Positions 8,548-63,070 of a stretch of 64,000 nt of DNA are shown here, one piece after another. Numbering within the stretch: the first letter of the stretch is position 1; each line of letters begins with the position of its first letter. Below the pieces are notes generated by a model. It was not told the origin of the DNA and did not search any database. It saw only the letters and a list, made by a program, of their open reading frames with translations. The translations under genes were made by a program, and so were the position numbers. The stretch is from Chiloscyllium plagiosum (lineage: Eukaryota): positions 7,747,510 to 7,811,509 of the forward strand of contig NC_057758.1 in assembly GCF_004010195.1 (NCBI RefSeq). Reading direction: 5' to 3'.

Positions 8548-8685
8548 TTTAAAAGTGCAAGCTTCCAATACCTTCCTGATGAAGGGGCAGAACCCATAAA
8601 GCTACTGCAGGCAAATAAACCTATAATCTGGTGTTGTGAGATTTTTAACTTTGCCTGTACCAGCCCAGCACTGGCTCTGCAACAT
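8548..8685 (+). mobile_element. PLE terminal fragment (family 2) with a degenerate hammerhead core and a short inverted 5' piece
   Basis: cctgatgaaggggcag...aaagcta...aataaacc...ctggtgttgtgagatttttaactttg matches the ends at 34280-34460 and 40293-40575. Confidence 0.6.
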
Positions 8686-8689
8686 ATCA

Positions 8690-8990
8690 GGCGGCACGGT
8701 GGCACTGTGTTTAGCACTGCTGCCTCACAGCGCCAGAGACCCAATTTCAATTCCCGCCTCAGGCAATTTTCTGCGTGGAGTTTGCACATTCTTCCCGTGT
8801 GTGCGTGGGTTTTCTCCACGTGTTCCTGTTTCATCCCACAGGACACAAGTGTGCAGGTTATGTGAAATGGCCAGGCCAACGTGCCTGTACTGTTAGGTAT
8901 AGGGGAAAGTTTTTGGGGGTTTGCTCTTCGGAGGGTTGATGTGGACTTGTTGGGCCGAAGGGCATGTTTCCACACTGTAGGTAATCTAAT
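8690..8990 (+). mobile_element. HE1-like V-SINE (tRNA-derived)
   Basis: tRNA-like head ggcggcacggtggc...agcactgctgcctcacagcgccag, V-domain gtggagtttgcacattct..., CR1-like 3' tail; possible TSD tatcag (8685-8690 / 8997-9002). Confidence 0.85.
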
Positions 8991-9884
8991 TATGATTATC
9001 AGTCCAATGGGAGGGGCTTGGGTTCCAGTCTGCTCCTCCAGCCGATGGGTGTGACTGGGTTGGGGCCAATGGCGGTACATGTTTAGGTTTTGCAAGCGTC
9101 TGTCATAAACATGGAAAAGTGGTGGAATGACTGCGAAAAAACAGAGAGCCAGGGACAAAAACAGAGTATGCGATTCACTGGGAAGGGAGCAACATTGAAA
9201 GAATCAGATGATGCATATTGTACAAAAATTGGCAATTTGCACTGTACCTGTTGAGAGCAATGATGAACACCAAGGTCCATCAGCCAAGCAGTTTCAGTGT
9301 TTCCAGTGTAATGGGTAGTAGAGCACCCATCCTCCAATCCCGTGACTCCATACAGATATGCCATCGACTTTGCCACTTCTGCGCAGGTCTGAGGCAATTT
9401 TCAGGAACTGCCAGCTGGTAGTAACGTCAGTGAGCTGGGCTCGGATAGGGGAGGGAGTGCTCCTCCTCTTGATTGTGGTTGTTTCACATTGCGTTGTGAC
9501 AGCGTTTCTAAAATCTTTCACCCCCATCCGAAGAAAGTGACTAGTGGGTAACAGTCAGTGTGAGATAATGTCACTTTTCCTCATTCTTCCTATTTCTCCC
9601 AGTGCCAGACTGCAGGCTCCTGGGACAATGATGGGAGTGACGGCTGGCTGCTAATTTGTTTCATTACAGAGCAGTTCTTGGCATGGAAATGGACAAGAAA
9701 CTACTGGATGTAACTTTGACACCATGCAGATACATGAATTTCCAGTCTGATATTTTCAAGGGAGGGAGATGCTGTTGGGCACTAGAATTTTATCGGGGCA
9801 TTGTCTAACCAGCGTAACTTGCGCTGATTTTGTGATGCTTATTTCTATAAAGCATTTAAATCCATTTCACACTTTTTTTTTAAT

Positions 9885-10678
9885 AAATAAGACGATAAGA
9901 CGATAAGACATAGGAGTGGAAGTAAGGCCATTCGGCTCATCGAGTCCACTCCGCCATTCAATCATGGCTTATGGGCATTTCAACTCCACTTACCCGCATT
10001 CTCCCCGTTGCCCTCAATTCCTTGTGACATAAAGAATTGATCAATTTCTGCCTTGAAGACATTTAGTGTCGGTATCCACTGCACTCTGCGGCAATGGATT
10101 CCACAGGCTCACCACTCTCTGGCTGAAGCAATGTCTCCACATATCTGTTCTGAATTTACCCCCTCTTATTCTAAGGCTGTGTCAACGGGTCCTAGTCTCC
10201 TTGTCTAACAGGAACAATTCCCTCGCGTCCACCCTTTCCAAGCCATGTTTTATGTTGTAGGTTTCTATTAGATCGCCCCCTAATGTTCTAAACTCCAATG
10301 AATACAATCTCAGGATCCTCAGCCGTTCCTCATACGTTAGATCTACCATTCCAGGGATCATTCGTGTGAATCTCCGCTGAACACACTCCAGTGCCAGTAT
10401 GTCCTTCCCGAGGTGTGGGGACCAAAACTGGACTCAGTACTCCAAATAGGGCCTAACCAGAGCTTTACAAAGTCCCAGTGGCACAACAGTGCTTTTATAT
10501 TCCAACCCTCTTGAGATAAATGACAATATTGCATTCGCTTTCATAATCACGGACGCAACCTGCATGTTTACCTTTAGAGACTCCTCGACTAGCACTCCCA
10601 GATCCCTTTGTACTTTGGCTTTATGAATTTTCTCACCGTTTAGAAAGTAGTCCATGCTTGTATTCCTTTTTCCAAAGT
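9885..10678 (-). mobile_element. 5'-truncated CR1 3' end
   Basis: QRDLGVLV...ALVRPYLEY on the minus strand; 3' tandem tail (ataagacg)n at ~9888-9910. Confidence 0.88.
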
Positions 10679-11023
10679 GAAAAGTTCGAATAAAACTCGA
10701 ATCTTCGACATTGACAAGCTTGGGTAGAGCAAGACAGGCATGAACTGTCAATTCCCAGGTGTCTGTAAACCGGATGACAGAATGTCATATGACCTGTCAC
10801 TGCCGTACCTGTGCTGAAGGTTCACATGCGATGCTTTCATTCTGAGGGTTGTTAAACTGCAGTAATGAAGGCACTGTCATATATTTATAGATAGAAAAAT
10901 AAGTCGTGGCATTAAGATACCACCCTGACTACAATGAAATGCTCCCTCATACTGCACAGACATATTATATTACAATACTTGATTTAGGGACCAGGCCAGG
11001 CTTCCTCAAACATTTTAATAACG

Positions 11024-11392
11024 TAGAACATAGAACATAGAAAAGTACAGCACAGAACAGGCCATTTGGTCCACGATGTAGTTCCGAGAGTTAATCCTAA
11101 TGTAAAATGTAATAACTTAACCTACACACGCCTCAAGTCACTGCTATACGTGTGCATGTCCGGCAGTGCTTTAAATGTTCCCAATAACTCTGCTTCCACC
11201 AGCACAGCTGGCAACGCATTCCATGCATTCACAACTCTCTGCGTAAAGAAACCACCTCTGACATCTCCCTTAATCCTTCTTCCTAATATCTTCAAACTAT
11301 GACTTCTCACACTAGTCAAGCCTATCCTGGGGAAAAGTCTCTGGCTATTTACTTTATCTATTCCTCTCAGTATTTTGTACAACTCGATAAGA
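11024..11392 (-). mobile_element. CR1 3' end
   Basis: YKILRGIDKV...FFTQRVVNAWNALP; (agaacat)n tail. Confidence 0.88.
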
Positions 11393-11869
11393 TAGCCCAG
11401 ACCTTAGCTTTTTTTCTTATTTTAACGGCAGATGTGAGTGGAAATTCCTGGTGTGATGCAGCTGGTTTAAACCACTCGTCTTTAAGAAAAACCTCAAACA
11501 AAAAAAATACAGTTTGGAAGAATTTAATTACTGAACACTAAACCGACTGTAAATAAAAAGAATAACCAACAAAGCTGTTCCACCTCCCGCAACATCCCAT
11601 AAACCCGAACTCCAGCAAAAGATAAATGTAGACACAGGTTCTTATGGGCAGTAGAGATTTCAGATAGAATGCCACTCAGGAACCACCTACTTAAGCTCGG
11701 AACCTTTTTTCCACTGGAGCAACTTCCCATTGTTACAACGACAACAAACGAGGAAAAAAACCTGGACTGAGAGAACGGTAGGCAGATGTTTGCTGGTAAA
11801 GTTGTGGCTGGAAAATGAGAAGACTACATAAATGAGGTAACGAAGTCCAGATACTGTGCATTCGCGTTA

Positions 11870-16920: not shown

Positions 16921-16959
16921 GCATGAACAAAGATCTACAGGATGGGGTCAACATGTTTG

Positions 16960-17265
16960 AAGTGAACCAGCATCCGAGGGGTAGGAAAATCGACGCTTCG
17001 GGCAACAAAAAACTCTTCACCAGGAATGGGGCTGGGAGCCTCAGGGATATAGAGATGAATGGGAAGGGGATCTGGCTGGTTGAAGTCAGCTGAGAGTGCA
17101 AGAGGTGAATGGAGGTGAGTTTAAATGTGATGGTAGAGCGGATAGGTGGAAATGAAGATGAACAGTTGGGATGGCTCATGACGATGGAGCTGAGCTGGAA
17201 GGTTCGAAGTGGGGTGGGGTGTGGGGAGGAGAAACAAGAAAACTAGCGAAATTCACATTGATAGC
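16960..17265 (-). mobile_element. PLE 3' terminal fragment with a decayed hammerhead
   Basis: Reverse complement reads attcctggtgaagagtttttgttgcccgaagcgtcgattttcc and resembles 55660-56050. Confidence 0.7.
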
Positions 17266-20034: not shown

Positions 20035-20037
20035 GAA

Positions 20038-22516: not shown

Positions 22517-23545
22517 TCAACATACTGAAGAATGTGACACTGTGTCAGAAAAGGTGTGGTCTCCCCAATGTGTCACACGATACATAGTTGCCTATGTAAG
22601 TGACGGACCAACTTGCCATGTCAGTGACGGACCAATTCTCTTCGACTTGGTGTTGAAAAATGTGGTGCTGGAAAAACACAGCAGGCCAGGCAACATCCGA
22701 GGAGTAGGAGAATCGAGGTTTCGGGCATATGACCGAAACGTCGATTCTCCTGCTCCTCGGATGCTGCCTGCCTGCTGTGTTTTTCCCGCACCACATTTTT
22801 CAACTCTGGTACTCCAGCATCTATAGTCCTCACTTTCTCCTACTCCTCTGCGACTTGGTGCTAAGACACATTCTATTCGTCGAAAGAGAACAATTTCCTT
22901 TCTTTGAGATGATTCCCATGTGTACAATACATGCTGTACTGTTATATGCAGCCACAGATGCATCTGTCTGGTTTACTGTTGCTTTCACGTTTGACCGATT
23001 GTAACCATCCGCTGTAGGAAGTGGTAGAGTACATATTTCAGCGTGGAGGTAGCACATGTGGAAACCCCCTTGGTTTTGTATCATGGAACAGGATACTCAA
23101 TTGTCTCTGGTACTTGCAACACATTCTATCATTGGCGTTTCCATTTGTGCTAATTCTGCTATTCAATGTTTTCGCCATCAAACAGGTTTTAATGATCACC
23201 CGCACCCACACCAGTAACAGGCTCCAATCTCATAGATCTTGGAAATCTCATACAGATGCAGCAGGAGAGAGCTGAAGACAATCTGCTGTTTTCAAATTTT
23301 TCATTTCAGGAACTTTCTTCTTCTTACGTGTACTATTTATGATATTCTGTTTGTGGAGACAATTTATAATTTGTGTTACAGGACTGAACATTAACTTTAC
23401 TTTGTGCTTGAATTGAGCTTTGTGTTTGAGCTGTTGCGAATCTTTTCCTGCTGTACCAATACTTGAGTTCATGTTGTTATTCAAAGTTCAGAGAACTCAA
23501 AAATATCTTTAAATACCCCTTCACTTTAGTTTTTCTGTTCATTTT
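22517..23545 (+). pseudogene. GPR139-like class A GPCR, main (second) exon, disrupted
   Basis: Acceptor cacag|TC AAC; VNIL...RCGL..CVTRYIVA, CTIHAVLLYAATDASVWFTVAFTFDR, FPFVLILLFNV, ISGTF, SCCTN and KFRELKNIFKYPF; stops, frameshifts, apparent TM4 deletion and a 198-bp insertion. Confidence 0.85.
22653..22850. mobile_element. Fold-back PLE mini-element with a 10-bp TSD (CGACTTGGTG at 22643-22652 and 22851-22860)
   Basis: Inverted arms of ~75 bp (22652-22728 / 22729-22804) centred on CATATG within hammerhead stem II. Confidence 0.88.
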
Positions 23546-25571
23546 ACGCTGCAAATTACAAAATCATTCGAAGGCAAGAAGGCCTTCTCAATACATTTCA
23601 TTTCCTGGTCTGTATAAAAAATGGGAAGTTGCTGTCGTGTTCTCCACATGGTAAAGCGTTCTCGCAAGGATCATCTTCACCGGGACGTGGGTGTCATTAT
23701 GATCATGTCATAATTTGAGACCTGCTTCCATGATGACACCAGTGTTGCCTGAGATTCATCTTCTGTAGTGTTGTTGATTACTCCTGGCAGAGTGAGTAAC
23801 GAGATGTGCTGATTTTCTTTCGCCGAAAATCCCCAAAGTATGCTGGGTCAAAATATTTAGAATCAGCCCACGTGGTTAGCATCAACTGTGGCTCTGCATT
23901 CGACCAATCTGCTTTCGAACAGTAAAACCTCAAATCTTAACTCAAGGATCGAATGGAGGGGGTTCTTTCTTTCTTCGATTCTTCTTACCCCATTTTGCAC
24001 TTCAAATCTGCACATTTAATTTGATGATTAAATTTGCATTCACAGTCTTAATTCAACCTACAGTGCTGATGATCTCCAGTAGCACACATGCCATCTTACT
24101 CATTCCCTTCATGAAGAAATATTGTGTGATCATGCAAACATTATTTGTTTTCTCACTCATTTAATGTGTGCCCCAGGCGTCACCATCCATGAGTCAATGA
24201 AAGTTGTTCCACCATATATCATGCAAGTTTCCCATCCCTGAAGTATTCTTATGAGTCCTTTTAAGTTTTCATAATTTCACACTCTTCCGAAAACACTGAA
24301 ACAAGAACTGCACTCAATCATTCATTGTGGTCGATCTATTGATTACGCTGGTATACCGAGTCCTCAGATAAACCAGCCTGACGTTTTTGCTTTCGAATTG
24401 GCACTGTTGAATCAAATGCACCTTGGAAAAGTCTCCAATCCTCCGTAAAATTGTCGACACTCAGAGAGCTGGAGTAAAAAACATAACCTGTGTAATTTCC
24501 ATTTTCAGAGTTGCTGAATAAACACTATCAGGTTTTGATTTATCATCAATTTTAAGACGGAAACATTCGCAATTGCTGTTCTCTTACAATTTCATTGCAT
24601 CATCTCTCCTCGTCTTACCGTTATATTTTCGAAGAGAACACAGAGGGAAACACTTTCTTTTCCCAATGAGAAACCATTTAATCAATCGCTTATTGATTTC
24701 TCCATGCTGCCATTCCTAAATCACCTCATTGTTCCTTATTCTGTATCGCTCATTTTATGTTTAAAAGTCTGCAAATGATACTTGTATTTCACGGTATATT
24801 GGTTTTAGTCTTTTCTTAATCTCCTTCATCAAACATTTATTTTTGACAACCAAACAGTGAATGATGGACTTGAGGCATTGTCAGATTCAAGGTTTCCTGC
24901 TGTTCTCAACAGCGTTCATCAAATAAAAATGTACCATGGACAATTTTGCAGTTGTGAGACAAAACTAAAGGCTGGACAGAGCTTTTTCTTTAATTACTGT
25001 CGTCATTGTCGTTTACATAATCTGTCTAGGCACGATGTACAACGATGTCACACAACTTTAGTTCCACGCTACCGATAAACCTTGCCTCAGTACCGTTATT
25101 ACTCTCAGTCATTCATTCCTTCTCTCAGACAATCACACCAACCGGCAAAATCCCTTTCCACATTTTCATGCTCTTTCTTTTATTGATTCAGATTTCCCCT
25201 GATTCCAGATCTCTGGACCCTTTCTCTTTCTTCAGTGTATCCATATCCGTGTATCGATAATTGATTCACTCTTCCTTGCAAATTGTTATTCTCTTCCTGC
25301 CTCTCTGTCTATCACACACTTGTTACTTTTTCACTCGTGAAGTGCGAATTCACTGGTTGGCTAGAATTTATTACAACTTGAAGTTACACTTGAGATAATG
25401 GTGCTGAACATAGTTTTTGAAAAGCTGCAGTCCACGTGCTGTAGTTTAACCCCATATATCTAGTGCCATTGAGTTTGTGGATGGTAGTGGTTATCAGTTT
25501 GTAATGTGCCTTTCAAGGATGTCTGGAAAATTTCGGTACTGAATCAATGTACTGATGATTCGAAGTTAAAA

Positions 25572-25768
25572 GTGAGAACTGCAGTTGCTGGAGAACATAT
25601 TCGAGAGTGTGGTACTGTAAAGGCACAGCAGGTCAGGCATCCAGGGAGCAGGATAATCGATTATTTGGGCTCATGACGGCTTAAGACCGGAAATTCGATT
25701 CTCCTCCTCCTCCTCAAATGCTACCTGACCTGCTGTGCTTTTCCAGCACCACGCTCTTGGCTCTGCTG
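25572..25768. mobile_element. Fold-back PLE mini-element (decayed), inserted in an older LINE fragment
   Basis: Left arm gagagtgtggtactg...cacagcaggtcaggca and right arm acctgacctgctgtgcttttccagcaccacgctc; centre lies at the hammerhead remnant. Confidence 0.7.
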
Positions 25769-27961: not shown

Positions 27962-28145
27962 AATCATCCCCCCAGTCCCTGGCCCATTCTCTTATTTATC
28001 TCTCAACACCCTTCCCATTCACCCTACAGTCGTGATGAAGGGCTTATGTCCGAAACGTCGACTCCCCTGCTGCTTGAATACTGCCTGACCTGCTGCGCTA
28101 TTTGGTGCTACTCTTTTCGACACTGACTCAGCAGCATCTCCCGGA
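27962..28145 (+). mobile_element. PLE 3' end with a near-consensus hammerhead (first core C mutated to G)
   Basis: gtgatgaagggcttatgtccgaaacgtcgac at 28032-28062, followed by ctgcctgacctgctg. Confidence 0.75.
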
Positions 28146-28504
28146 ACCCACTTTCTTCCAACCCTAAGTCCTGTTGCTGTTACAATTTTACTATAATATG
28201 CCATTGGTGATGTTTATATGGGAAAACAGTAATTAAACTCGTCAAGAATGAATGTATTTGCAATTTCATATTAGTGACTTGGAGGGGGACAAACGAGTGG
28301 AAAGCATGTGCATATATTGTTCATGTCCTTTATGGTGTTTTCAGCTTAAGACTGCAGTCAAAGTATGCTCTTTTTGAACCAATTCCCGAGCTATGAACAT
28401 TGGTGGAAACGCCAAATGTTATTGAATATCATTAATTACTAGAGTCTTGTTAAGAGTTAAAGGCATTGCTGTGCGTCGGGAATCTTATGTCGACTGTCCA
28501 GGAT

Positions 28505-28715
28505 TCGTGAGTGTGGTGATGGAAAAGCAGAAAAGCAGGTCATGCAGCATCCGAGGAACAGGAGAATTGACATTTCGGGCAGAAGCCATTCATCAGGGCT
28601 GATGAAGGACTTATGATCGGAACATCCATTCTGCAGCTCCTCAGATTCAGCCTAACATGCTGTTCTTATGGAGCACCACACTCTTGACTCTGATCTCTGG
28701 CATCTGCAGTGAAAC
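28505..28715. mobile_element. Fold-back PLE mini-element with two back-to-back hammerhead cores
   Basis: ...tttcgggcagaagccattcatcag-gg-ctgatgaaggacttatgatcggaac...; arms gagtgtggtg / caccacactc. Confidence 0.78.
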
Positions 28716-30229
28716 TTGTAGTTGAATCGCCCCCAACCGCGCCCCCTCCCCCCCCCCCCACCCCCCAATCTCTTTGTAAAAATGTGAAGCCTGCTTCAAG
28801 ATCGACAAACCTCTTCTCTTGGCTGTTTGTCACTGGGCACGACAGAGCCGATGTCAGAGAGGCGTCACAATAATTTTTCGGCACTACCCGACTTTGCACC
28901 ACAATATGTGGACCATGGTCACTCCCTACTGTTTTGGGATTAAGATCCAGCAAGATATATATCCCGTCAGTCTGTTATACCTGCTAATACAAATTCATTA
29001 AAACTATCTCTGGCCATTTGGGATGTTCATCCACGACTACTGACATCCTGTGCCTTTCTCTGCCAATTCCCCTGAAATCGACGTGAGTCCTTTACAGCAT
29101 TCCTACAGGTGAAACGATAACAGCACCTTTCTTGCTAATGCGTGTGATTCGTATGATCCCCATTTCACCTCAATTTGGAAGACGAGATTTGCCAACCAAA
29201 AAGGGCTGCAAGCCCTCGCTTTCATTCACACCATGCTGAAGTGCACTTGCTGCAATGCCTCCTGCACATCTCCCTCTAAAGGGGTGGAATAACAACTGAA
29301 CAAACATCCAAAAGAGCTGCGAGTGCTGTCAATCATGAAGAAAAATAGAAATTGCTGGAGAAATTTCTGCATGTTAGGCAACATCTTGCAGAAAAAATAT
29401 TGGTTCGTGTTTTGAAATTCAATTCCGTTTTGATGGTCCATGCTTCGAAGCATTTTACAGGTGTCAATAGAGCTCAAGTACGCTAATGCATGATGAATCG
29501 TTTCAAACAAAAAACTTGGAGGGTACTCGCACTGTTTCCTCAACTAAACTGAGAATAAACAGCAACTGCCGTTATCAATGCGTTTCTAAACGGGAGTATG
29601 TGTAGTGTTGAAAGAAATTGCATATTATGTATTCGTTTTTCACTCTGGTTCTTATTATTAAAACAGTGCACCGTCTGTCATTTGTCTAATCAACAGGATA
29701 TGGCTAAACCAGCGAAATCTATGTTTAGATAAGGCAAATTCTGATAGAGATGTAACAATTGTACCTATTTCATTATTATTTACGGATGTTGCTATTCAGG
29801 GAGAGTAGCTGTTTGCAAAGCATACTTTCAGCCAATAATATTTTTGTCACACTGGTTGGGTCACTTCCAGGAAGTAAAAATAAGCGAAGACGGTGAGAAG
29901 AAATCAAAATGTCAATTGCAATGATTTCAGCAGTGAGGAAACGTAAATCTACAGACCTGGTATAATCAAGATATTTTGAGACCTTAACAGAACACTTTGT
30001 AACAAATGTAATCGAAATTACTTGTATTGAAAGTCAAATCATACAAAGTGTTGTTTGAAGCACGATTTGTCAAAATATGCGAGGATCAGAACGATGCACA
30101 ATAGTTCAAATATAGTCGCAGAATAACCGTTAAATTCAGACAATCGTTAGTTCAAGGTGCTTTGTGGAGAGAAACAAGCAGAAAGCTGCAAGTATTATTT
30201 AGCCAAATATGTCATGATATATTTCCTGT

Positions 30230-34262: not shown

Positions 34263-34279
34263 TGATAAGAACATGACTT

Positions 34280-39032: not shown

Positions 39033-39438
39033 GTCCAGCGTTGACACGTGGCCGCACAGCTAGTGCAGGAGGGACGGCTTCAGATATTTGGATCAATGGG
39101 ATACCTGCTTGGGAAGGTGGGACTGTACAAGGAGGTCTGCCTGAACCTGAACTGGAAGGGCACCAATATCCTGAGCGGGAGGTTTCCTTGAGCTCTTTGG
39201 GAGGTTTCAATCTAGTTTGGCAGGCGAATGGGAACCAGAGCTACAGACCAGACGATGGGGTAATGTGAGCAACTGCGAGGTTTTGCACTTTGGAAAAAAG
39301 AATACAAGCATGGACTACTTTCTAAACGGAGAGAAAAGTCATAAAGCCAAATTACAAAGGGATCCGAGAGTGCTAGTCGAGGATTTTCTAAAGGTAAACA
39401 TGCAGGTTGAGTCCGTGATTAAGAAAGCGGACATTTAT

Positions 39439-41796: not shown

Positions 41797-43020
41797 TTGC
41801 TGCGAGTATTGGAAAAGTTTGTCCTACTGAGGCAAGGAAGAGCATCGAGGATGCATGAACGTTGGATGACAAGAGATATGGGCCATCGAGTCAGAGAAAA
41901 AGAATGAAGCTTACTTAAGGTTGAGAAAGCATGGATAAAACAGTGATCCAGGCGGTTATAAGATGGTCGTGGAATGAACCGAAGAATGCACTTAGAAGGG
42001 CGAGAGAGATGCATAAAAAAGCCTTCCCAGGTAGAATTAAGGAAAGCCTTAAAGTGGTCTAAGTTTATTTGAGGAACAAATGAATGGCCAACGTGAGAGT
42101 AGGGCCGATTAGGGATATTAAGTGAACTCATGCCTGGAGTCAGAGTTGGTGGGGAAGTCATCAATGAATGCATTATTTGAGTTTTCACTACGGTCGTTTG
42201 TGAGGACAACGTAAAGTATGCTGGTTTACTCGAATAGGTTGATGGGAAGAAGGAGCATGTCCTGGAATTTTAAGGGCTTAAGACCGAATCGTCGATATCC
42301 TGCTCCTTGAATGCTGCCTGACTTGCTGTGCTTTTCCAGCACCACACTCAAGACTCTGATCACCAGCATCTGCATTTTCAGTGTAGCCGATTTACCTGCG
42401 CCAGACGGGTTATAACCAAGGTTTCTCCGGGAAGCAATGGAAAAGATGACTGTTCCTTTGACAATGATCTTCGCATCCTCATTTTCAACCAAAGTAGTAA
42501 CAGATGATTGGAGGGTGGCAAACGTTATTGCCTTGTTCAAGAAAGCTACTAGGTATAATCATGTGAATTACAGACCATTCAATCTTGCATTGTTGGTTGG
42601 CAAATTAGTGGAAAGGATTCTGAGAGATAGGAAACGTGATTATTTGTTTATTGTCCAACAGGTTTAATTGAAAACAGTACCTTTCTGAGGATTGCTCCTT
42701 CATCAGGTGGTTGTAGAGTGTGAGATTGCAAAATTCACAAAATATAGCAAACTTTTACTGTGTGATGTAAATGAAATTATACCTTGAAAAAGACCCGGAT
42801 TATTTGTTAAGATTCTCATCTTTTAGAACGACCACGTTGGTTTCAGAACTTTCATATGTAAATCGCAAAACCTTTTCTTTAAAAGTTACATTCTCAACTG
42901 AACTTTAACAATTGGAGACTGTCAACCCAGGGTGGACATGGCAATAGGAGGGGACATACTTTTAAGGAGATTGGAGGAAAATGTAGGGGTGATGTCAGAG
43001 GTAGGTTCTTTACACATATT
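41797..43020 (+). repeat. Copy 2 (in native CR1 context) of the ~1.23-kb duplication
   Basis: Matches copy 1; both end at ttctttacacatatt. Confidence 0.92.
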
Positions 43021-43241: not shown

Positions 43242-44990
43242 TTATTTGTTGAAATCATTTATATAAATGACGAAAAGAAGTGGACATAGCACTGACCCTT
43301 GTGGCACACAACTGGTCACGTCCCAAAAAAAATAAAGAAAACAACCCAATACCACCTCCCTCTGTCTCCTATCTCTGAGCCAATTCTCTGTACAAGTGGC
43401 TACTTCTCTCTTTATTCCATGTGATTTTACTTTGCTACACAGTCTTCCCTGCGGAAAATTGTCAAATGTTTTACAGATGGTAAAATCGACAACGTCGACC
43501 TTTCTTCCCCACATACATTCTCTTCGTCACTTCTTCAAGAAATGACAACTGAGGATTGCAGATGTTGGAGAGTCCGAATCAAAAAGTGTGGTGCTGCAAA
43601 ATAACAGTGGGTCAAGCAGCATGCGAGGATCAGGAGTGAGACGTTTCGAGCATATGCGAAAGAGCTTATGACCGAAACATGCCCTTCTCCTCGAATGCTG
43701 CATGACATGCTGTGATTTTCGAGCGCCACCCTTGTCGAATTTTAAAGAGGCTGAAGCTATTCAGTGAGACGCATTTTCTCACGCACAATGTCATGTTTAA
43801 TATCCTTGATTATTCCTTTCCTTTCAAAATATATCTAAATTCTGTGCCTCATATTCCAGTAAAACAATTTGACTAACACTGACGTCAAACTTATTTGTCT
43901 ATAGCACCTTGGATTTTCCTTTTCAGCTTTCTTAAATTCTTTAAATAGTGGGTCCACTTCCCACAGAGTTCCATGAGGTATGTAATGGCGTCGTGGGAAT
44001 TTATCGATATTTATACGTTTTTAGACATAAAGTACCTTATCCTCTGTAAAAACAGACAGCTTTCAAATTTGATAATTTACTTCCGAATTTCTCTAGCTTG
44101 CACATCCTTCCGTATAATAAAATGCTCATGCAAAATACACTGTTAGTACCTCCCCCATCTCCTGCAATTCTGCACATTGGCAATCTTTCTAATTTTTAAG
44201 GGGACCTAGTTAGTCCCTAATTACTCTTTTTCCTTAATTATTTGCAGAGTCCTTTCGAATTCTCCTTAACCCTATTTGCCAACGCTATCTGAGGTCCCCT
44301 TTTTGGCATCGTAATTTCCCTCTGAAATGTAATCCTACTGCCCTTACAATCTTCCAACGATGCACTTTCTGTCTGGAATTAAAGTCTAATAACGCCCACG
44401 AGTGCGTTTTGGATTTTTGGAAAAGCTTATTTGTTTTACTAATGCTCTTCAAAGAAACAAAACACCATCCTTAACTGTCTGGCCGGCATGTTCCCCATTA
44501 ATGTGGAGGACACTTCACTGCCCTCTGGGCAATGAGGGATGCGCAGTAAATGCCGCAAATCCAGCGACATCTTCATCTGATGAATTATTTTTTAAAAAAA
44601 TAACGATTTCCTGCTCTCTCTATCTGGCATAGGTTAGCCTCTTATCCAGGATCAGAACCTCAATTGCTCCAGTCATCTAGCACTCCTCATCACCTACCAA
44701 CCTTTCCCTTCACCCGAACAGGGTATACTCTCTCGGGGCTCTTTGCATTTCATTTTTGAAGGCTCCCCGCTTACTAGCAGGCCCCTTTCTGCGAATATCT
44801 ATCCCAATCGACTTTTGAACGTTCTTGCCTAATATCATCAAAATTTGCATTCCTGCAATTTCGATCGTTCACATTTAAACCCAGTTCTCCCCTTTCCATC
44901 TCTATTTTAATACGAATAGAATAGTGATCTCTCACTTAAACGTCAATCACTTGCCCTGCCCTGTCTTATTTCCCAAGAGTAGGTCACGTT
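43242..44990 (-). mobile_element. Decayed CR1 ORF2 fragments with nested small repeats
   Basis: KTFDNFPQGRL...VTSCVPQGSVLCPLLFVIYIND; further CR1-like sequence to ~44990; a SINE-like tail at ~44400-44600. Confidence 0.7.
43548..43740. mobile_element. Fold-back PLE mini-element
   Basis: aagtgtggtgctg...gcagcatgcgagga...gacgtttcgagcata / gagcttatgaccgaaac...ctcgaatgctgc...gcgccac. Confidence 0.72.
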
Positions 44991-46621: not shown

Positions 46622-46785
46622 AGAGAGAATGTAGTGCTGCAAAAGCGCAGCAGATCAGGCAGCATCCGAGGAACAGGAGAAAAGACGTTTCGGGCAAAAG
46701 TCCTTCGTCAATTCTGCTCCTCGACTGCAACTTGACGTGCTGTGCTTTTCAGGCACCACACTCTCGACTCTAATCTCCAACATCA
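46622..46785. mobile_element. Fold-back PLE mini-element
   Basis: gagagaatgtagtgctg...gacgtttcgggcaaaagtcctt / cgtcaattctgctcctcg...gcaccacactctc. Confidence 0.72.
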
Positions 46786-49764: not shown

Positions 49765-51340
49765 GATATGCTGGATGGCATCCTCCTCTTCCTCTTGTAA
49801 TAGAATCAAGAAGTTTATCGACCTGCGTCTGTTCCCTTGTAACAGGCTCGAGAGGCTTACTGAGCACTTTGTGTCCCTGTGGTACAGAGACGAGAGATTA
49901 AAGTATTTCCTCCTGTGCTTCGTTAGGTGGGTCAAAAGGCTGCATGACCTCCTCCTATTTATTGGAAGGGATTCGAGAGGGTGAATGACTTCCTCTTGCT
50001 CCTGTGTCACAGGATAGTGAGGGTGAATGACCTACTTCTGTTGCTGTGTAACAGGGCCAGGTAGCTGAATTACTTCCACGTGCTCCTGTGTGACATGATA
50101 GAGAGAGTAAATGACCACCTTTTGCTCCTGTGTAATAGAATAGAGAGGATGAATGATCACTCCCCTTTATCCTGTAAGTAACTTGAGATATTAAGTGACC
50201 TCCTCCTGGTCGAGAACGGCAGGCACAAGAGACTTATTCGCCTCTTCCTGTTCCTCTGTAACAGTTTAAGAGGTTGAATGAATGACTCCTGTCCGACTGC
50301 AGCCCGCTCAGGAAGCTGAATACAATCTTCCTATTTCTATGTAAGGGGTTTGAGTGGCAGAAATAACTCATCCTGTTCCCCTGTAGCTGATTCGAGAGGC
50401 CGAATGACCGCCTCCTGTTCCCTCTACCGGCTTGAGAGTCTGAATGACCAACTTCTCTTCCCGGTATTAGGCCTGAGAGGATGAATTGTGTTCCCTGTAC
50501 CTGGATGGAGACACCGAATAACCTCCTTCTGGTTCTCTGTTGCAAGCGAGAGATGCTGAATGACCTCCTTCTGGTTCTCTGTTGCAAGCGAGAGATGCCG
50601 AATGACCTCCTTCTGGTTCTCTGTAGTAAGCGAGAGATGCCGAATGACCTCCTCCTGCACATTTGCGACCGGCACAGAATTTACTGAACTACCCCTATTC
50701 AAATGAACAGGATCAGCAGGCTGAATTACTTTCTCCTATTCCCTGTTTAACAGGTTCAGAGATTAATTGAACTCCACCTTTTCCATTGGAACAGATTTGA
50801 GGAGCGGAATGCCCTCCTCCTGTTCCCATGTAACAGATTTGAGACGTTGAATGAACACTTCCTCTTCCTGAGTGACAGTCTGGAGAGGTGTCTGCTCCCC
50901 TTCAGCAGATTCGAAAGGCTGATTGACCAGACTTTGTTCCTGTCTAACAGGCTGCAAAGGGTTAATGACATCTTTCTCTCTGGTGTAAGAAGTTCCACTG
51001 GCGTAATAGCATCTTTGTCTCAGGTGTTACAGACTCCATAGGGTTAACGAAATCACTCTCTCAGGTATGACATATCTCGAGCGGTTGAATTATCGTCCCC
51101 TTATTTCTATAAAAGACACAAGAGGTGAAATGACGTCCTATTGATCCTTAAGATAGTGAATGACTTGTTCCTGATCTTGCTGAACAGACTCGAGAGGCTG
51201 ATGACGTCGCTCTGTGCCTGTTCAACAGTCTTGAAAAGCGGAATGCTCTTCGCCGTGCCCCATCACATGTTTGAGAGTCGAAATGGGGCCCTGTTGTTCG
51301 TATACACCAAGTTCGAGAGACTGAATGACCTCCTTTTTTT
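49765..51340 (-). repeat. Degenerate 42-bp tandem array (~35 units); minus-strand unit translates as approximately VTxEQEEVIxPLEx
   Basis: gaatgacctcct motif recurs at 42-bp spacing (e.g. 49983, 50025, 50067, 50109, 50151); three near-identical units at 50516-50655. Confidence 0.85.
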
Positions 51341-52670: not shown

Positions 52671-52719
52671 TTTAGATTGACGGGACATCATACTATATTT
52701 AATTTTCGTTTACTTGATT

Positions 52720-54874: not shown

Positions 54875-56115
54875 CTATGTTGAAATGTTGGGCCACAGGG
54901 CGGTGGGGTTGATTGTTGCGGGTGTCCCGGAAATATTCCCTAATGCACTCCGCTCGAAGGCATCCAGTCTCCCCAATGTAAATGAGACGCATCGAGCGCA
55001 ACAAATACAGTAAATAATATTGGTGGATGTGCAGGTGAAACTTTGATGGATGTGAAGGCTCCTTTGGGACGTTGCCTGGAGGTGAGGGAGGAGGTATGGG
55101 CGCAGGTTTTGCAGTATTGCAAACCACATCATCCGACGACAATTCCATCACGTCCAAATGGACCCAACCACCAGGGATACATTTCCCTGCCCAATAATTT
55201 CCACTTTCCGCAAAGACCGCTCCCTTAGTGACTACCTGTCAGGTCCAAGTCCCCCAACAACCCACCCTCCCTTCCTTGCACAATCCTGTGCCACCGGAGG
55301 AATTGCAAAACCTGCACCACACCTCCTCCCTCACCTCCATCCAAGGCCCCAAAGGAGCCCTGCACATCCATTAACTTTTCACCTGCACATACACCCATAT
55401 CATTTATTGTATCCGTTGCTCCTGCTGCGGTATCATCCACATTGGGGAGACTGGACGCCTCCGAGCTGAGGGCTTTAGGGAACATCTCCGGGACACCCGC
55501 ACCAAACAACCTCACCGCCCTGTGGCCCAACATTTCAGATCCTCATCCTACTCTGCCGAGGACAAGCAGGTCCTGGACCTCCTCCAACGCCGCTCCCTTA
55601 CCACCCGACGCCTGGAGGAAGTACGCCTCATCTTCCGCCTCAGAACACTTCAACCCCATGGCATCAATGTGGATTTCAAGAGTTTCCTCATTTCCCCTTC
55701 CTCCACCTGATCCCAGTTCCAGCCTTCCTGCTCAGCACCGCCCTGATGGCCTGTCCTACCTGTCTATCTTCCTTTTCACCTATCCACTCCACCCTCCTCT
55801 CTGATCTATCACCTTCATCCCCATCCCATTCACCCATTGTAATCTTTGCTACCTTCCCCTACCCTCGTTTCTGACCTATCACCTCCATCCCCACCCCCAT
55901 TCACCTATTGTACTCTATGCTACTTTGTCCCCACCCCCCCCCCACTCTCATTTATCTCTCCACTCTGCATGCACCCTGCCTCTATTCCTGATGAAGGGCT
56001 TTTGCCAGAAACGTCAATTTTCCTGCTCTTCGGATGCTACCTGACCTGCGGTGCTTTTCCATCACCACTCTAATCTAGACTCTGTGTTTCCAGCATCTGC
56101 AGTCGTTGTTTTACC
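54875..56115 (+). mobile_element. Penelope-like element 3' part: GIY-YIG endonuclease remnant and hammerhead-bearing end, with an inverted 5' copy (54875-55125, minus)
   Basis: FTCTSTNIIYCICCARC...IYIGETG...PVAQHFN on both strands; RRLEEVRLIFRLRTLQPHGINVDF; cctgatgaagggcttttgccagaaacgtc at 55987-56015. Confidence 0.88.
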
Positions 56116-59100
56116 TCAAAATATTTATATCAATGAGTTTGATCAAATGGATAAATTTGGAGTTGCAAGTCATTCGTTAACTGTGACGTCAGTTGGAAAC
56201 TATACCTTCCTCTCTTCACTGGTGAGCTGTAATGTTTGTAAGACAGATGACGAGTGGGGAGAGAAAACGCAGGTATCTGAGAGATGAAAATATTCGTGTG
56301 TAAAGTACAGAGAACCAAATAAAACAAAAGGAGTGAATACTAAGGAACCTTGGGATAAGATAGAGACGTACATATTTAGGGATGTACAGATACACATTTA
56401 AATTCAGATTATTAAGGAAGTTTGCAATTCAAGATTCTGGTTAATGTGTGGGAGTGAGAGATAAGGAGACAATGAAAATGTGTTTCCAGTTTTTTTGATA
56501 AACTGAAAATGTCAAAATGAAAATAAAGCAGACGGAAGAGAGGAGGGAGATCATCAGAAAGGACAAGTGAGGGACATAAATATTGAGAGTGTGAAGAGGT
56601 GGAAATGAAAGTTTCAAAGTGAGGAAACACATAAAAATCGTACAAAGGGATACTTGAACGACTGTGGGCAAACTTGGAAAACGATATTGCGACAAAGTAA
56701 GTTTCACAAAAAAGGAAAAGGAATGAGCTAGTCTAAGACTGCTGGCAGCTTGAAAGATAAACATCATGGTTGGAAACACGAGCCCAGAAATATATGCGTC
56801 TAAAATCACAGATGGTTGTACGTGCTGCATGGCATTACTGAGATTGCGGTAATTGAACACGTTGGAAAAGTTTGCATGCAAAGTGAACAATTCAACTGAC
56901 CTGCTGGATCGTGTGTTAATTATTAAAAATAATTGCGTTACGTGCACGTTGCTTGCCAGTCTGGAGGTCCTTGCAGAAACAGGGAGAATATACAGCTAAT
57001 GAAAAAAATTGGCATATAGAATGTTTTCAATCTGTGGGTAGTTAAAATAAAGGAAGGTGGATTCCAGAGAAATGATTACGAGGTAATAGCATTTATATTT
57101 AGATTATCATTTAGATTTAGATTTTATTTCCACGTATACACAAGTATGGAGAACAATAGTACAGCGAATAGTGTGTAATGTCACCATACACGGCGCCACT
57201 TCAGCTAAAAATATCCAGTTTACGAAATAGAAAAACTTAAGAAGCAAGTTAAAATGTTCAACACTTTAGTCTATTTACATATCAGCAGAAATATAAAACA
57301 ATGAAATTAACATATCAATATACATTATTTCATGATTTGTGGTTTCACAGCCTGGATGGTTTTACCGTAGTTGAAAGGGTATAATATGAGAGAACAAATT
57401 CGGTGTAGATAGAATTTGAGGACATGAGCCTGGACGTGGTCATGGAAGCAAGGAGATAGACGGAGCAGGAATATAGAAAGCACAAACATGGAAGACGTCT
57501 TCCAGCGGGAATTCCAGTCCGAGGGCGATCATTGTTCAATCTCACCCCGAGATACCGTCGAACTGTTTCTCCAGTTGTCTTTTATCTATTATTCCACTCT
57601 CTTCATTTGATTTTGCTATTGTTACTTTCCTAAGACGAAAAGGAGACTTGTGCAGAACAAAAACACTAAACAACGATATGCTTTGCCTCATATCTCAAAC
57701 CCTATTTAATTGACAGAGTTCATCATATCAGTATTTTTTTTTCTGTTGCACTGAATACTTGGAAACAGATTGTTATTCTTTACACATTAAAAACCAAACA
57801 ATAGATATTTATGGATCTCTATAAATTGCATTACAGTCCAGAAGATGAAACAATTATACTTAAAAATTACTCTAGTACAGAGCTTACGTTTAGACAATTC
57901 CTGTATCTCGAATATACCAGTGCGAGGGGAAAACTGAAGGATATATTTATTGACAAGAGATAACACCGAGTAGTATAGCGTATCGGTCTTAATCAAACAT
58001 GGAAGTCTTACTTGAACACCAAATATATCTCTTTCCAACTTCTGATTGTGGAGCTGATCATCATGCAATGTCGAGATTAAATTTGCAATTCCATGTTGTA
58101 CTTCGCTCTCAAATGAAAAGAATCAGCGTCACATGATTTCAGACTTCAAACTTCTGCATCAATTTTTTTTATTATATTAGAATAATGACTGAACATACAT
58201 CTTGATTTTTGTGTCATTAAATTATATCAACCATCGTATGATATTTCCATATTACAGGACAGATGCAGAAATGCCACAGGTTAATAAATGTAGGAAACAC
58301 TAAGATGTTGGAGAATGTTTCAGAGATTGAAAGTATTGTCGTTCCAAAGCAGGTTATCGAAGTATTGAAAACTACTTTTAAGCGGTGATTTATAAGAGGT
58401 AGTTACTTTCGTTTGGATTCTGATGCTTCACAAGGCCAGAAAAGGCTATTGTGACTGGTAGCATTGTGAATTAAGGAGCATTTTGCTGCAATAGGATGTT
58501 ATCGTTTTAGTGAATGGTGTACCTGTCAGATAATGTTTTGGATAGCAGGAAGTTGTAACAGCTGAATAAGGGTTCCGTTAAAAGTAGTGTCGAATTCATG
58601 GAGAATGCTTACACACGGAAGAGCACTTTAAAATCAAAGTGAAGCGAGAAAAAATGCCATTCACTCAGCAATCATAATTGCCATAAGTTAGACAATAGCA
58701 GAGAAACCAATAGTGTGTTGAAACCTTTAGTAGAGAGGGCAGAACAAAATGATTTTCGATTTAAGTGACTTGAACGATTGGTTGGAGACGTGAAGTCTTC
58801 AGATTGATTTCAGTCGAAATTCTTCTCAGTCTCAAGTGTTAGCCTCTGTTTGGGAACACTGGAGAGAGTTTCAGGAAACGGATGGTATATGGAGGCATAC
58901 ACGTTCCTTGCCACAGATACCAGTTGTTGCCTGTAGGCACTTCTCCATGGCGTGTGAAGGGTTTCGAGCATTACACGAATGAGAACCTTAATTATTTTAA
59001 ACAGTGTTATTGCCATTGGTGGAATAAATTTCCCAGCTTCTACAGTTCCTAGTGTTTGGAAGAACCAAAATATTCTGACTTTTCTAGATGTGAACAGTTG

Positions 59101-59630: not shown

Positions 59631-59799
59631 TATTATGAGTCATGTAGCTTTTCTTTAGGTTGAATAGCGGATCACAGTCCTGGTGAAAAGTGCTTGGATT
59701 CGAATTGTGAACTCTGCATTCTTTCCAAAGTTGAGCTGAGACATGCTGATTTTCTCCTGCAATTTCCGGCTTTGTTTGAAATGGTTATTGAGCATGGGA

Positions 59800-59889
59800 T
59801 GGAAATGTGTTGCTGGAAAAGCGCAGCAGGTCAGGCAGCATCTCGGGAACAGGAGAATCGACGTTTCGGGCATTAGCCCTTCTTCAGGC
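59800..59889 (-). mobile_element. Short PLE end with an intact hammerhead core
   Basis: Minus strand C-CUGAAGA-A-GGGC-UAAU-GCCC-GAAA-CGUC-GA at 59888-59857. Confidence 0.8.
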
Positions 59890-61162
59890 ACGGGATCCGT
59901 TCAAACAAAAAAAAAATGAAACTAGCCGAGCTTGACCAGATGTTTCTATTGCATTGCATCAAGCTCTAGTTTGTGATTTGGAAATTGTTAATAAGTAGCA
60001 GCGTTCAGTGACTAATGCACTCATGCGTTTAAAGTCATCCTGCTTCCAATTGTGACTGGAAAGTCCACGTGGTACTGGAAAGAGAATGAAACAAACAGGC
60101 ATAGAATTGCGTCCTGAGCTGAAATGACATTCGAGAGCTCAAATGTACCATAAAGACGCTGATTTACGTTGAGAATTAACATCCATAACTTAATTAAATA
60201 TAATTCTTTTATTATAACACCAGTACGTCATAAAGTCTCAAATGCACTAATTAGTGTTGAAATCTCTGTGGTAGAACTCTGAAAATGAACAGCCAGACCT
60301 GATAACTGGTTTGTAAACTCACCTTCGAGCATACACACACACAATAGTTCAGACGGTCTGTGGCTTTTTTGCAACAGGTTTGGAGTTGTGGGCACGATGT
60401 GGGCAAAGTACGAAAAAGGTTGAAAATGTTGCTGCAGTGTGTTCTCACATATTTCCGTCGCTAATGTCCACATCCTTCTACCACTTTTTCTCCAAATTCA
60501 CATTTTTGCACATGACTCACATCTGTCGCCCATTATATTTCGACACATCCCACTTATGTTGTTTTCCACCATTCTCTGCTTTCTTGTCATGTCATTGTTT
60601 TCAGAAGTAGTTAATTTCTGAAAGTTTAAAAGCTCAAATATACTGTTAATCTCATTTAAAAGCATCGTCTCTCAGGCTTGAAGGCTCTTGCCCTTCTGCT
60701 CTGTTGTTCACTGTTACACCACAGTTAGTTCTCTCTCGCACGGTCTGCAACTCTTTAAATCTCCCTCGGTGTCTCCTCTCTCTTGTTTTCAATCCACTGT
60801 TCACTGTATCTCCCTCAATGGTATCTCTCTGTCTCTATCTCTGTTCCCCCAAAACCCACCTCACTTTCTTTCTGAAAGGAAAGACAATGTCTTTCAGACA
60901 CAAAAAGTAAGAAATAACAGCAAGGGGGGAAGGGGAAACGGGTAATAGAGGGTAAATGCAGGGAAACAGAAACGACGTTTTAGATGTCCAAGAAAGCAGA
61001 ATTGAGACAGGGGATGAGAGACCAATTTCACCAAAGAATGCAAACTGAAATATAAACGAAAGAAAATGTGAAATTCCTGCCATCTCTCGATGCATTTTCA
61101 CAATCCGTCTCTCACATCAATTACAAAACCATGCTCGTCGGCTATTGTAAGGCTGGTCGGCG

Positions 61163-61166
<4 letters not shown>

Positions 61167-61198
<32 letters not shown>
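61167..61198 (+). repeat. (CA)n microsatellite
   Basis: Seen directly in the sequence. Confidence 0.97.
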
Positions 61199-61200
<2 letters not shown>

Positions 61201-61964
61201 TGGACATCAATGTGGTTAATGAATGCATCTTTTTCAGGCATTCCTGTACATATCCTGAGGACTGTCTTTCAACGAAGCATTCTCCCACCCCAGAATTTCG
61301 GATTCTTCATGAAGCTCCAAGACTTTTCCATCTGGACCCTACATCACTCAGCTATGCAACACAGCAGAAGTTTTCTTTGAAACATTCTCATTGGCTGGAA
61401 AGTCCAGGAGTTAAATAGTTTACCCCAGAGGGGCCTCGAACTTTCACATTTCGCTCTACTAACTAACTCTTAGAGAAAACACAATGAGTGCATTTCCAAT
61501 TCTACTCTTTGTCTGAAGTTGACTTTTCAAATTTGCGACTCCTTTCATCAGGACTGAACCCGTTTGAAGTGTTCACGGTGGAGATTATAGTTCAAGGTAA
61601 GCATTGCAGGCACACTGTTGCATTTTCCAGGGAAAGATATAAAACAGAAGTCCTGAGTCCCGAGTCCTGTGCTCAGCAGCACAATCAACATTCATTCTCA
61701 GCTCCTTCCCAATGCAGGGTGGGAAACGTCTCTCTAATGGATACTCTGCCTTTTCCAAGCCAATTACAGCAGGTTTATGTATTTTGCATTGGAAGTATTT
61801 ACATGCAGCATTGATGTCATTGTTAGCCACATTTCCTTAATCTACACATTCAATCCTGTGAACACACAATCAATGATGGACAACACGACGGGAACCCCTC
61901 AGTCCTCCCATGAACCTTGCAGTCATAAACTTGTCTTTTGGGTGTTGCAAGAGATCTCATTTAT

Positions 61965-62190
61965 TCCAAATCATTCAATGTGGAATGCGCATGGAATTAG
62001 CTGCCAGTAGAAGTGGTTGAGGCAGATACATTAACAATATTTAACATTCATTTGGACAAAAACATGGACATGAAATATTTAGAATAATATGGGCTAAATG
62101 CAGGGACGGAGGGTGAGCGTGGACGGAAGTTTCGTTCATCATGGAGCAGTTTGGGCCTGTCAGCAAGCGGTAGGACTCCATGACTCGATA
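61965..62190 (+). mobile_element. CR1 3' end fragment
   Basis: tggaatta/gctgccagtagaagtggttgaggcag...catttggacaaaaacatgga. Confidence 0.65.
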
Positions 62191-62782
62191 ATGTTCTGAC
62201 TTCTCCGTTATTTGCCTTTAAACTGGGTGTTTATTTAACACTAAAGACTCCTTTGAACACCGTGTTGTAATTTATATGTCGCATTAAATTTAATTCAGAT
62301 GATTTCAAAGATTGGTAATCGCTACTATGTTTATAAAGATTTTTGTGAAGATTAACTCGAACAAAAAGCGACCTTAGTCTGTGGCAAGGTTGATGAACTG
62401 GGAACAGATTCTCATTCACGTAGCCCTGAGAGAGCAAATACCCACAGTTTGTCTGTCTTGAAGCTACAATTATCGACTTCTGTCGTTTTGTTTTGATAAT
62501 TCAGGGGATAAAGGTATCACTGGTTAGGGGGGAACAATTGTTTGTAACCATTCAAACTGTCTTGGGCATGTGAGTAATGGCAGAAGTTTATCGGAGCATG
62601 AACATGCTTTTCAGTTTATAAATGAAAACATGCAGCCTGTAACTACTGATAGCAGGCATTGCAATATGATTTAAAAAGAGAGAACTTTTAGAGTCCATAA
62701 TCTGAATAGAAAATGTGCCTTAGACAACGTGAGGTTATAACAGTCAAACGGCGTGTATATGTAAGAATGAAATGTAAGTAGG

Positions 62783-63070
62783 AGATAATGGGGACTGCAG
62801 ATGCTGGAGAATTCAGAGCTGATAGAGCAGGGCGGTGGAAAAGTCACAGTTGCTCATGCAGCATCCGAGGAGCAAGAGAGTCAATGATTCAGGGCAGCAC
62901 CCTTCTTTAGGACTGGGGAGAGGCAAGGGTCCTGAGAGATGAATGTGTTGGAGGGGTGTGGCTTAAAGAGAGGTAGACCATAAGTGAGTGAAGGTTGGAG
63001 GTGATCGTGATAGTTCGGTGTGGAGTGTGGAGTGGATAGGTGGGAAGGACGATGCACAGGTATTAATGCA
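62783..63070 (-). mobile_element. PLE 3' end, decayed
   Basis: ggactgcagatgctggaga...gcagcatccgaggagca...cccttctttagga, followed by a purine-rich stretch like 17020-17200. Confidence 0.7.

Follow-up and report, generated by a model that had tools for sequence, protein, structure and literature searches.

A stretch of 64,000 nt from Chiloscyllium plagiosum (assembly GCF_004010195.1, contig NC_057758.1, positions 7,747,510 to 7,811,509 of the forward strand), hereafter called the window, was analyzed for short repeats that represent the 3' ends of Penelope-like elements (PLEs) and bear a minimal hammerhead motif. Short, 3'-anchored pieces of two repeat families (A and B) are numerous in the window, and a third family (C) is present as remains. 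In families A and B, PLE 3' ends form seven inverted pairs, 154–209 bp in length, whose arms diverge from a head-to-head center. The arms of these fold-back pairs start in the hammerhead region, most often at its 5' edge.

Copies, coordinates and fold-back pairs

Copies were located by self-comparison and profile searches of the window. The family A profile gave 19 matches at E ≤ 2e-4, of which two belong to the third family and one is a segmental duplicate; the family B profile gave six strong matches, five of them from its own training set. The segmental duplicates at 42272 and 42706 and the family C pieces at 5395, 29313 and 38915 were omitted from the counts of copies. Arm starts were placed on a common ruler that takes the C of the CUGANGA box as position 1. 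On it, helix II occupies positions 9–20, the GAAA box 21–24, and the cut site 28/29. Helix I is formed by positions -3 to 0 paired with 29–32. In the longest family A copy, position 1 is window position 55988. The pairs are as follows (the start of each arm is its ruler position; matching letters of each target-site duplication, TSD, are given as a fraction).

8530-8683, family B: short arm 8530-8567 (minus strand), start about 21 (or 6, if an internal deletion is assumed); tail-bearing long arm about 8573-8683 (plus strand), start about -3; TSD candidate 8521-8529 / 8684-8692 (8/9)
22652-22845, family A: short arm 22652-22729 (minus strand) and long arm 22728-22841 (plus strand), both starting at 14 (9-14); clear TSD 22638-22652 / 22846-22860 (14/15)
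25569-25765, family A: long arm 25569-25670 (minus strand), start 17; short arm 25670-25765 (plus strand), start 1; arms overlap by 1 nt
28502-28710, family A: short arm 28502-28597 (minus strand), start 0; long arm 28599-28710 (plus strand), start 1; 1 nt between the arms
34274-34461, family B: long arm 34274-34384 (minus strand), start 2, or about -5 if a 6-nt spacer is counted; short arm 34391-34461 (plus strand), start 2; TSD candidate 34262-34273 / 34462-34473 (10/12 by eye, 8/9 by script)
43547-43737, family A: long arm 43547-43657 (minus strand), start 11; short arm 43660-43732 (plus strand), start 7; 2 nt between the arms
46622-46784, family A: short arm about 46625-46710 (minus strand), start 2; long arm 46706-46784 (plus strand), start 25; arms overlap by 5 nt

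Six of these loci (22653, 25572, 28505, 34280, 43548 and 46622) had been named in the initial annotation as head-to-head pairs from at least two families, and all six were confirmed; the pair at 8530-8683 had gone uncounted there. Family A accounts for five pairs (22653, 25572, 28505, 43548, 46622) and family B for two.

In all seven pairs, a tail is present on one arm only. The long arms of family A end at positions 106–126, and the short arms at 84–99. Family A arms are 82–91% alike to the majority sequence. The TSDs enclose the whole pair in three of the seven (one clear, two candidates). The TSD search found none at 25572, 28505 or 43548, nor could one be separated at 46622, which adjoins an (AG)n tract; these four pairs are among the older ones. 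The pair at 22653 is the youngest, its arms being 94% alike, and a 12-nt quasi-palindrome in helix II overlaps both of them. It folds at -136 kcal/mol (z about -22); the segment 22671-22785 within it matches an unrelated microRNA model far below threshold.

The family B arms are older than those of family A, and their arm-to-arm likeness is weak (score 20; of segments drawn at random from the window, 5% and 15% do as well). Each weak arm nevertheless matches another family B copy at a level reached by at most 0.25% of random segments. In both pairs, the two arms within one TSD are different sequence variants (n = 2). In both, too, the tail-bearing arm is without the same stretch of about 8 nt that is present in the short arm and in the copy at 40350.

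The hammerhead motif

Strict matches to the hammerhead core number six in the window, against 0.05 expected from shuffled sequences, and five of the six lie within PLE ends. The sixth, at 61521-61551 (minus strand), is outside the known repeats and is probably a chance match. Helix pairing was counted with manual anchors, as the MAFFT alignment of the core was one column out for family B. Among the five copies that extend upstream, 16 of 20 cells of helix I are paired, compared to 3–9 in slid controls; for helix II, the figures are 35 of 44 cells in eleven copies and 4–24 in the controls. Compensatory changes occur in the helices, and helix II is only 4 bp long. The hammerhead is thus a real feature of the families and a predicted ribozyme, and the earlier statement that these PLE ends carry minimal type I hammerheads is borne out at the family level.

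The individual fold-back arms are less complete. The features of the minimal type I form (core boxes, helix II, helix I and a palindromic helix III stub) are all present in the families but not in 13 of the 14 fold-back arms; the complete core survives in one arm (28596, minus strand), and the pair at 22653 is without any CUGANGA box. More than 12 ends had originally been credited with the motif. That number stands if recognizable remains are included, not if it is taken to mean strict cores.

An Rfam search of the window returned no hammerhead match. When the monomers were folded, none of the six z-scores was significant, as expected for minimal motifs. A scan of viral contigs with a 19-base motif gave no match; 48 matches of the same motif in metagenome contigs were treated as chance, none of them running past about 40 profile positions.

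Strand-switch positions in the window

The arm starts of the seven pairs, in the order listed above, are 21/-3, 14/14, 17/1, 0/1, 2/2, 11/7 and 2/25, so that all 14 fall between -3 and 25. Seven are at -3 to 2, five in helix II (7–17) and two at 21–25; an arm that starts at the 5' edge is present in five of the seven pairs. The clustering at -3 to 2 has P = 0.0015 against a uniform null over -4 to 45, or about 0.01 if the choice of interval is allowed for, the two arms of a pair not being independent. Starts at -3 to 2 cannot conceal further upstream sequence, because the partner arm leaves only 0–6 nt of room.

All seven junctions differ. Four are blunt or contain filler; the others overlap by the 12-nt quasi-palindrome (22653), 5 nt (46622) and 1 nt (25572). 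Microhomology thus shapes some junctions, but it was rejected as the sole cause of the switch, both on this count and because positions 1–40, which contain the ribozyme, have fewer inverted repeats of at least 4 nt than positions 41–80 (15 versus 39 half-counts); microhomology alone therefore fails to explain where the strands switch. Also rejected were 5' ends defined by ribozyme cleavage, as none of the 14 arms starts at 28/29. The long arm at 46622 could start at 29–30 if its 5-nt overlap is assigned to the other arm.

Junctions in whole-genome reads

As a proxy for the whole genome, sequencing reads were aligned to 55560-56125 at a likeness of at least 80% to one subfamily. Three runs were used, representing three samples from one study; about 4% of each run was taken, yielding 93,573–96,120 aligned reads per run. 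With 1.9 billion letters per run, the depth at the motif reached about 38,000. At the end of the open reading frame (ORF), the depth was 56% of that at the ribozyme, and copies that reach upstream are therefore common. The 15 best-supported joints were examined; a further 415, each with fewer than about 70 reads by ranking, are weaker.

Five of these 15 joints change strand, and all five use 55984, which is position -3. The four best-supported head-to-head joints connect 55984 to 55984, 55985, 55986 and 55987, i.e. to positions -3 to 0 at the 5' end of helix I, with 201, 77, 137 and 79 reads, respectively (494 in total over the three runs). The joint 55984/55986 had a 2-letter overlap in all three runs, which corresponds to a fold with nothing between the arms, and it is a perfect palindrome. 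Position 55984 is also the largest site of loose read ends (8,323–8,586 per run), with an agreement among those ends of 0.39; the agreement was 0.43 at the true 3' end and 0.72–0.89 at two subfamily boundaries. Among the 15 joints, there was no strand switch upstream and none in helix II. One joint type recurred in reads with 30–50 different start places per run.

Two other joints were observed. In 55984/56086 (90 reads), the fifth of the strand-changing joints, the edge of helix I is connected to an inverted piece comprising about 27 nt of the tail; these are fold-backs whose partner arm consists of tail only. In 56015/56086 (112 reads), the reads diverge from the reference where the cut site lies and match it again in the tail; the reference has a mismatch at 56016, and the reads may represent another subfamily with a different middle.

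An origin of these joints in library preparation was rejected: such structures, TSDs included, are also present in the assembly, and none of the listed joints corresponds to the strongest inverted repeat (46 with 100). The window and the reads agree that the switch points are tied to the ribozyme region, as had been claimed from the six loci. The genome-wide enrichment of breakpoints at the hammerhead, suggested in the initial annotation as a check, has a counterpart in the pile-up of joints at 55984, with the qualifications that part of this pile-up is an alignment edge and that the 415 weaker joints lie outside the set examined.

The explanation first offered for the clustering was that reverse transcription stalls or re-primes at the ribozyme. 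In its fuller form, reverse transcriptase (RT) would stall inside the folded or dimerised ribozyme, and the stalled cDNAs would then be joined. The seven arm starts at 7 to 25 lie inside the fold, which is conserved with compensatory changes, and both facts suit this account. Stalling, however, predicts ends on the 3' side of the motif (about 21–34), where only two of the 14 starts are found, while the main peak in window and reads alike lies at the 5' edge, beyond a fold that the enzyme would already have unwound. With a helix II of just 4 bp, and no helix II joint among the 15 best supported, we regard stalling as improbable.

The parent element

The longest family A piece has its ORF end, pseudo-long terminal repeat (pLTR), ribozyme core and tail in one contiguous stretch.

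54881-56112, plus strand, family A (M559): broken ORF end, pLTR, core at 55988, tail to 56112

In this copy, helix I begins at 55984, the cut site is 56015/56016, and the pLTR is pyrimidine-rich. The frame 55375-55707 encodes a GIY-YIG segment that matches 1851 proteins at E ≤ 0.001 and corresponds to the C-termini of proteins of 813 and 882 residues (E = 1e-15 and 2.6e-15). Six long protein matches were scanned for domains: RVT_1 followed by GIY-YIG was present in four, GIY-YIG alone in one and RVT_1 alone in one. Atlas clusters gave GIY-YIG at 0.95 for the same piece. A Pfam search of the reading frames of the window returned no match for it, and neither did word-indexed protein searches. 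A C-terminal GIY-YIG domain behind the RT, the mark of endonuclease-bearing PLEs, is seen here through the homologues, the RT itself being outside the window. On these sequence comparisons, family A is assigned to the endonuclease-bearing PLEs. A CX4CXXC motif lies upstream of the GIY-YIG segment in a shifted frame; it agrees with the CX2-5CXXC linker of Neptune and would fit Nematis too. From this linker motif, rather than from an RT tree, family A is probably of the Neptune type. Family B is putatively a PLE, a designation taken from its ribozyme and layout only.

In three subfamilies, helix I is preceded at a distance of 12–17 nt by a pyrimidine tract followed by AG|G, at 55940-55971 (plus strand), 62925-62945 (minus strand) and 17035-17060 (minus strand); in the 55988 copy, it is present only when the majority letters of the reads are used. 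It may be the 3' splice site of an intron within the pLTR, comparable to that of Penelope of Drosophila virilis.

Formation of the fold-back pairs

We consider it probable, with moderate confidence, that the pairs are minimal head-to-head insertions of endonuclease-bearing PLEs whose arms mostly start at the 5' edge of the hammerhead, having arisen from two cDNAs that ran off an RNA ending there and were then joined. According to the relevant part of a study of PAc, a PLE protein (Poseidon of Anolis), this protein cuts and extends both strands of the target, and reverse transcription starts at two sites that bound the tail (PMC11167929). In each pair of the window, one arm ends at the outer initiation site and the other at the inner. 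Two cDNAs would be primed from the two ends of a single target cut, at the two initiation sites. Since the arm starts peak where helix I begins, we infer run-off of both cDNAs from a template whose 5' end would be at about -3. Such an end could be a transcription start, the product of 5'-to-3' trimming halted at the folded or protein-bound ribozyme, or a point of release at the protein-bound ribozyme; self-cleavage would have no visible part. The bases around -3 fit, in three subfamilies, a loose initiator pattern. After slight trimming, the 3' ends of the cDNAs would be end-joined, either bluntly, with a few bases of filler, or by way of short overlaps that are self-complementary (helix II, or AT at -3/-2). 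Each hairpin would be built anew at its landing site and would be a dead end.

The same geometry could result from self-priming, or snap-back, in which a short palindrome in the ribozyme region lets a single cDNA, or an antisense template, fold back and be extended on itself into the second arm. Arkhipova et al. (2013) read PLE inverted junctions in this way in the passage on them, which reports palindromes there (PMC3846280). The pair at 22653 behaves as expected, since its strand switch is at the center of the quasi-palindrome in helix II, and the two arms share private variants as well as being 94% alike; the 5-nt overlap at 46622 and the palindromic read joint 55984/55986 point the same way. 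Four of the seven junctions are blunt or filled, however, inverted repeats are no more frequent in the ribozyme region than beyond it, and the second initiation site is where the short arm terminates. Moreover, the arms of the family B pairs differ within one TSD, and two templates are therefore favored over snap-back (n = 2; common descent from an older hairpin is another way to account for the difference). Snap-back is thus judged rather unlikely.

Several observations weigh against run-off and joining of two cDNAs. The template end at about -3 is read from DNA junctions only and not from RNA; in a single-cell polyA RNA run, no reads aligned, the sample being uninformative. The candidate splice site 12–17 nt upstream hints that the true transcription start may lie further upstream, as in D. 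virilis Penelope, the intron of which is described in the passage concerned as ending at the 5' end of helix I (PMC4209133). Together, these two points weaken the version in which -3 is simply a start site. No TSD was found for four of the seven pairs, and the five starts in helix II and the two at 21–25 fit stalling too. In an eighth inversion (54881-55113 versus 55304-55537), the change of strand falls within the ORF, and the ribozyme lies about 860 nt downstream of it. Starts in the ribozyme region were found in seven of eight inversions and two of six single copies (Fisher one-sided P = 0.063). Genomes purge long hairpins, and assemblies under-represent them, which by itself favors short arms. 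In the reads, the upstream sequences of the copies at 55988, 17023 and 62910 differ, making 55984 the end of subfamily homology; part of the pile-up there is an alignment edge because reads of other subfamilies are clipped. The distribution of joints was seen only in part, in reads at least 80% alike to one subfamily and from three samples of one study.

Some of these points could be taken further, to mean that the ribozyme is no special place at all: ordinary 5' truncation, the loss of long palindromes and detection limits would account for the window, and the read peak would be the edge of subfamily homology. The shared sequence does reach its limit at 55984, the one long inversion switches far away, and the Fisher test falls short of significance. 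Against this stand the clustering within 7 nt, the partner arms that leave at most 6 nt of room, so that starts at -3 to 2 are no edge effect, and the asymmetric joints, for which a model with only an alignment edge and 5–12% mismatch predicts 21–55 reads each where 77, 137 and 79 were seen. We give this explanation the least credence of those considered.

Relation to known elements

The insertion layout, here at minimal size, is already known; what is new and testable is the hot spot of junctions at the 5' edge of the ribozyme. As given in the passages on insertion structure in three sources, the PLE unit comprises a pLTR, an adjacent inverted, 5'-truncated copy, a one-sided tail of 30–40 bp and a TSD (PMC3846280, PMC8557442, PMC2377424). 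Individually, those passages report an inverted 5'-truncated copy with a one-sided tail for endonuclease-bearing PLEs (Craig et al. 2021, PMC8557442), TSDs and palindromic junctions (Arkhipova et al. 2013, PMC3846280), and a common inverted layout in D. virilis Penelope (PMC2377424). The present pairs resemble such units in their head-to-head arms, the tail on one arm, the palindromes or overlaps at the junctions and a parent with GIY-YIG, and a TSD, clear or candidate, surrounds the whole in three of them; an inverted, 5'-truncated partner with a one-sided tail is found in all seven. They differ in that both arms are 40–125 nt long, no ORF lies between them, and the junctions are at the 5' edge of the ribozyme, whereas the passages cited place the palindromes at pLTR 5' ends and draw no connection with the ribozyme. 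In the open-access literature, we found no earlier description of junctions that coincide with the edge of the ribozyme; most subscription papers were outside that search.

In the portion of PMC4209133 on PLE hammerheads, pairs on opposite strands 100–700 bp apart are described, together with many solo motifs from truncated PLEs. The motifs agree with ours in CUGANGA, the extra A, helix II, GAAA, the palindromic helix III stub and a covarying 4-bp helix I. Most arms in the window, unlike those motifs, are without part of the core; our ribozymes are predicted, and that portion does not map truncation or inversion points. For PAc, cleavage by the ribozyme was dispensable in vitro (Frangieh et al. 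2024, PMC11167929, in the part dealing with the ribozyme). The fold-backs are in keeping with the PAc system, in which both strands are cut and extended: two initiation sites bound the tail, and no RNA ends lie at the cut site. PAc belongs to another clade, however, the linker here being of the Neptune/Nematis type, and inverted junctions and 5' ends are not treated in the part of that study used here.

LINE-1 twin priming (of long interspersed nuclear elements) employs two primers from one target cut, with the junction sealed by end-joining or microhomology. What it inverts is a 5' part of one RNA that does not overlap the rest, whereas here the same 3' segment has been copied twice.

The fold-backs had also been proposed as a class of their own, similar to miniature inverted-repeat transposable elements (MITEs) or to non-autonomous retrozymes. 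Such a class is not supported, because the seven junctions differ, 13 of the 14 arms are without a complete core, the tail is one-sided and there is no tandem array. MITEs have a uniform length and center and spread as units; here, all seven centers differ, and there is no clustering by side. MITEs also have symmetric terminal inverted repeats and a DNA transposase, while these pairs have ends made asymmetric by the tail and a retroelement for a parent. Non-LTR retrozymes, in the section of the preprint that defines them, are head-to-tail tandems with at least two complete hammerheads (bioRxiv 10.64898/2026.07.22.740005). Like them, the fold-backs are short, non-coding, PLE-derived and hammerhead-bearing; unlike them, they have their two arms in inverted orientation and retain no more than one complete core per pair, and no head-to-tail tandem with two or more complete hammerheads occurs in the window.

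A narrower proposal is that some hairpins spread as units, forming a non-autonomous, MITE-like family of retro-hairpins from master fold-backs. Identical junctions at separate loci would be its sign. None is shared among the window pairs, but the one precise joint that recurs in the reads keeps unit spread of a subset in play, if only as a slim chance, and the same 8 or so nt missing from the long arm of both family B pairs could be read likewise. Within family A, the private variants shared per pair of arms average 0.8 (long-long), 0.4 (short-short), 0.5 (long-short of other loci) and 0.8 (within a locus), and so do not group long with long or short with short. When transcribed, such a hairpin would form a single long duplex with the ribozyme buried inside it, as the folding energy at 22653 illustrates, and the complete core is missing from nearly all arms in any case. 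We hold unit spread to be quite improbable.

Other features of the window

Single copies of families A and B were as follows.

59803-59888, minus strand: single family A stub, start 0/1, complete core; TSD candidate 59792-59800 / 59888-59896 (8/9)
39915-40028, plus strand: single family A stub, start about 7; duplicate at 42272-42374 in a 1.2-kb segmental duplication
40290-40380, minus strand: family B end with the best-kept hammerhead (core 40350), extending upstream; duplicate at 42649-42736
27989-28156, plus strand: single family A end, running upstream past the ribozyme
62780-63062, minus strand: single family A end, reaching at least 140 nt upstream of the ribozyme
16963-17262, minus strand: single family A end, reaching more than 300 reference positions upstream, into the ORF end

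The 1.2-kb direct duplication (39439-40665 and 41796-43020, 94% alike) contains the family A stub and the family B end. Tail-to-tail (convergent) neighbors that involve the third PLE-like family are located at 5395-5612 and 59694-59888, and decayed pieces of that family at 29313-29431 and 38915-39037. Decayed LINE-type RT copies occupy 1-8200 and 31200-34260 (RVT_1 at 1641-2645, E = 2.9e-15). A decayed array of 40–42-bp units lies at 49945-50878, and 36818-37317 is an assembly gap of 500 N.

Implications

How the inverted ends of PLEs form and what the hammerhead does are stated as open questions in the discussions of both matters cited here (PMC8557442, PMC3846280, PMC11167929). Tentatively, the hammerhead may serve as a boundary, not a blade. 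Helix I would fix the 5' end of a dedicated RNA of 90–130 nt, either because it contains the start site or because it stops 5' trimming, and a dimeric PLE protein would copy two such RNAs at one cut and seal them head to head. Solo stubs and the inverted junction would then have one source, and a subset of the hairpins may spread as units.

For annotators, such hairpins are liable to be mistaken for MITEs or microRNA precursors. The sharp junction peak at the 5' edge of the ribozyme, in a genome with a very high copy number, provides a prediction at the level of single bases that could be tested by 5'-end sequencing and in the in vitro PLE system.

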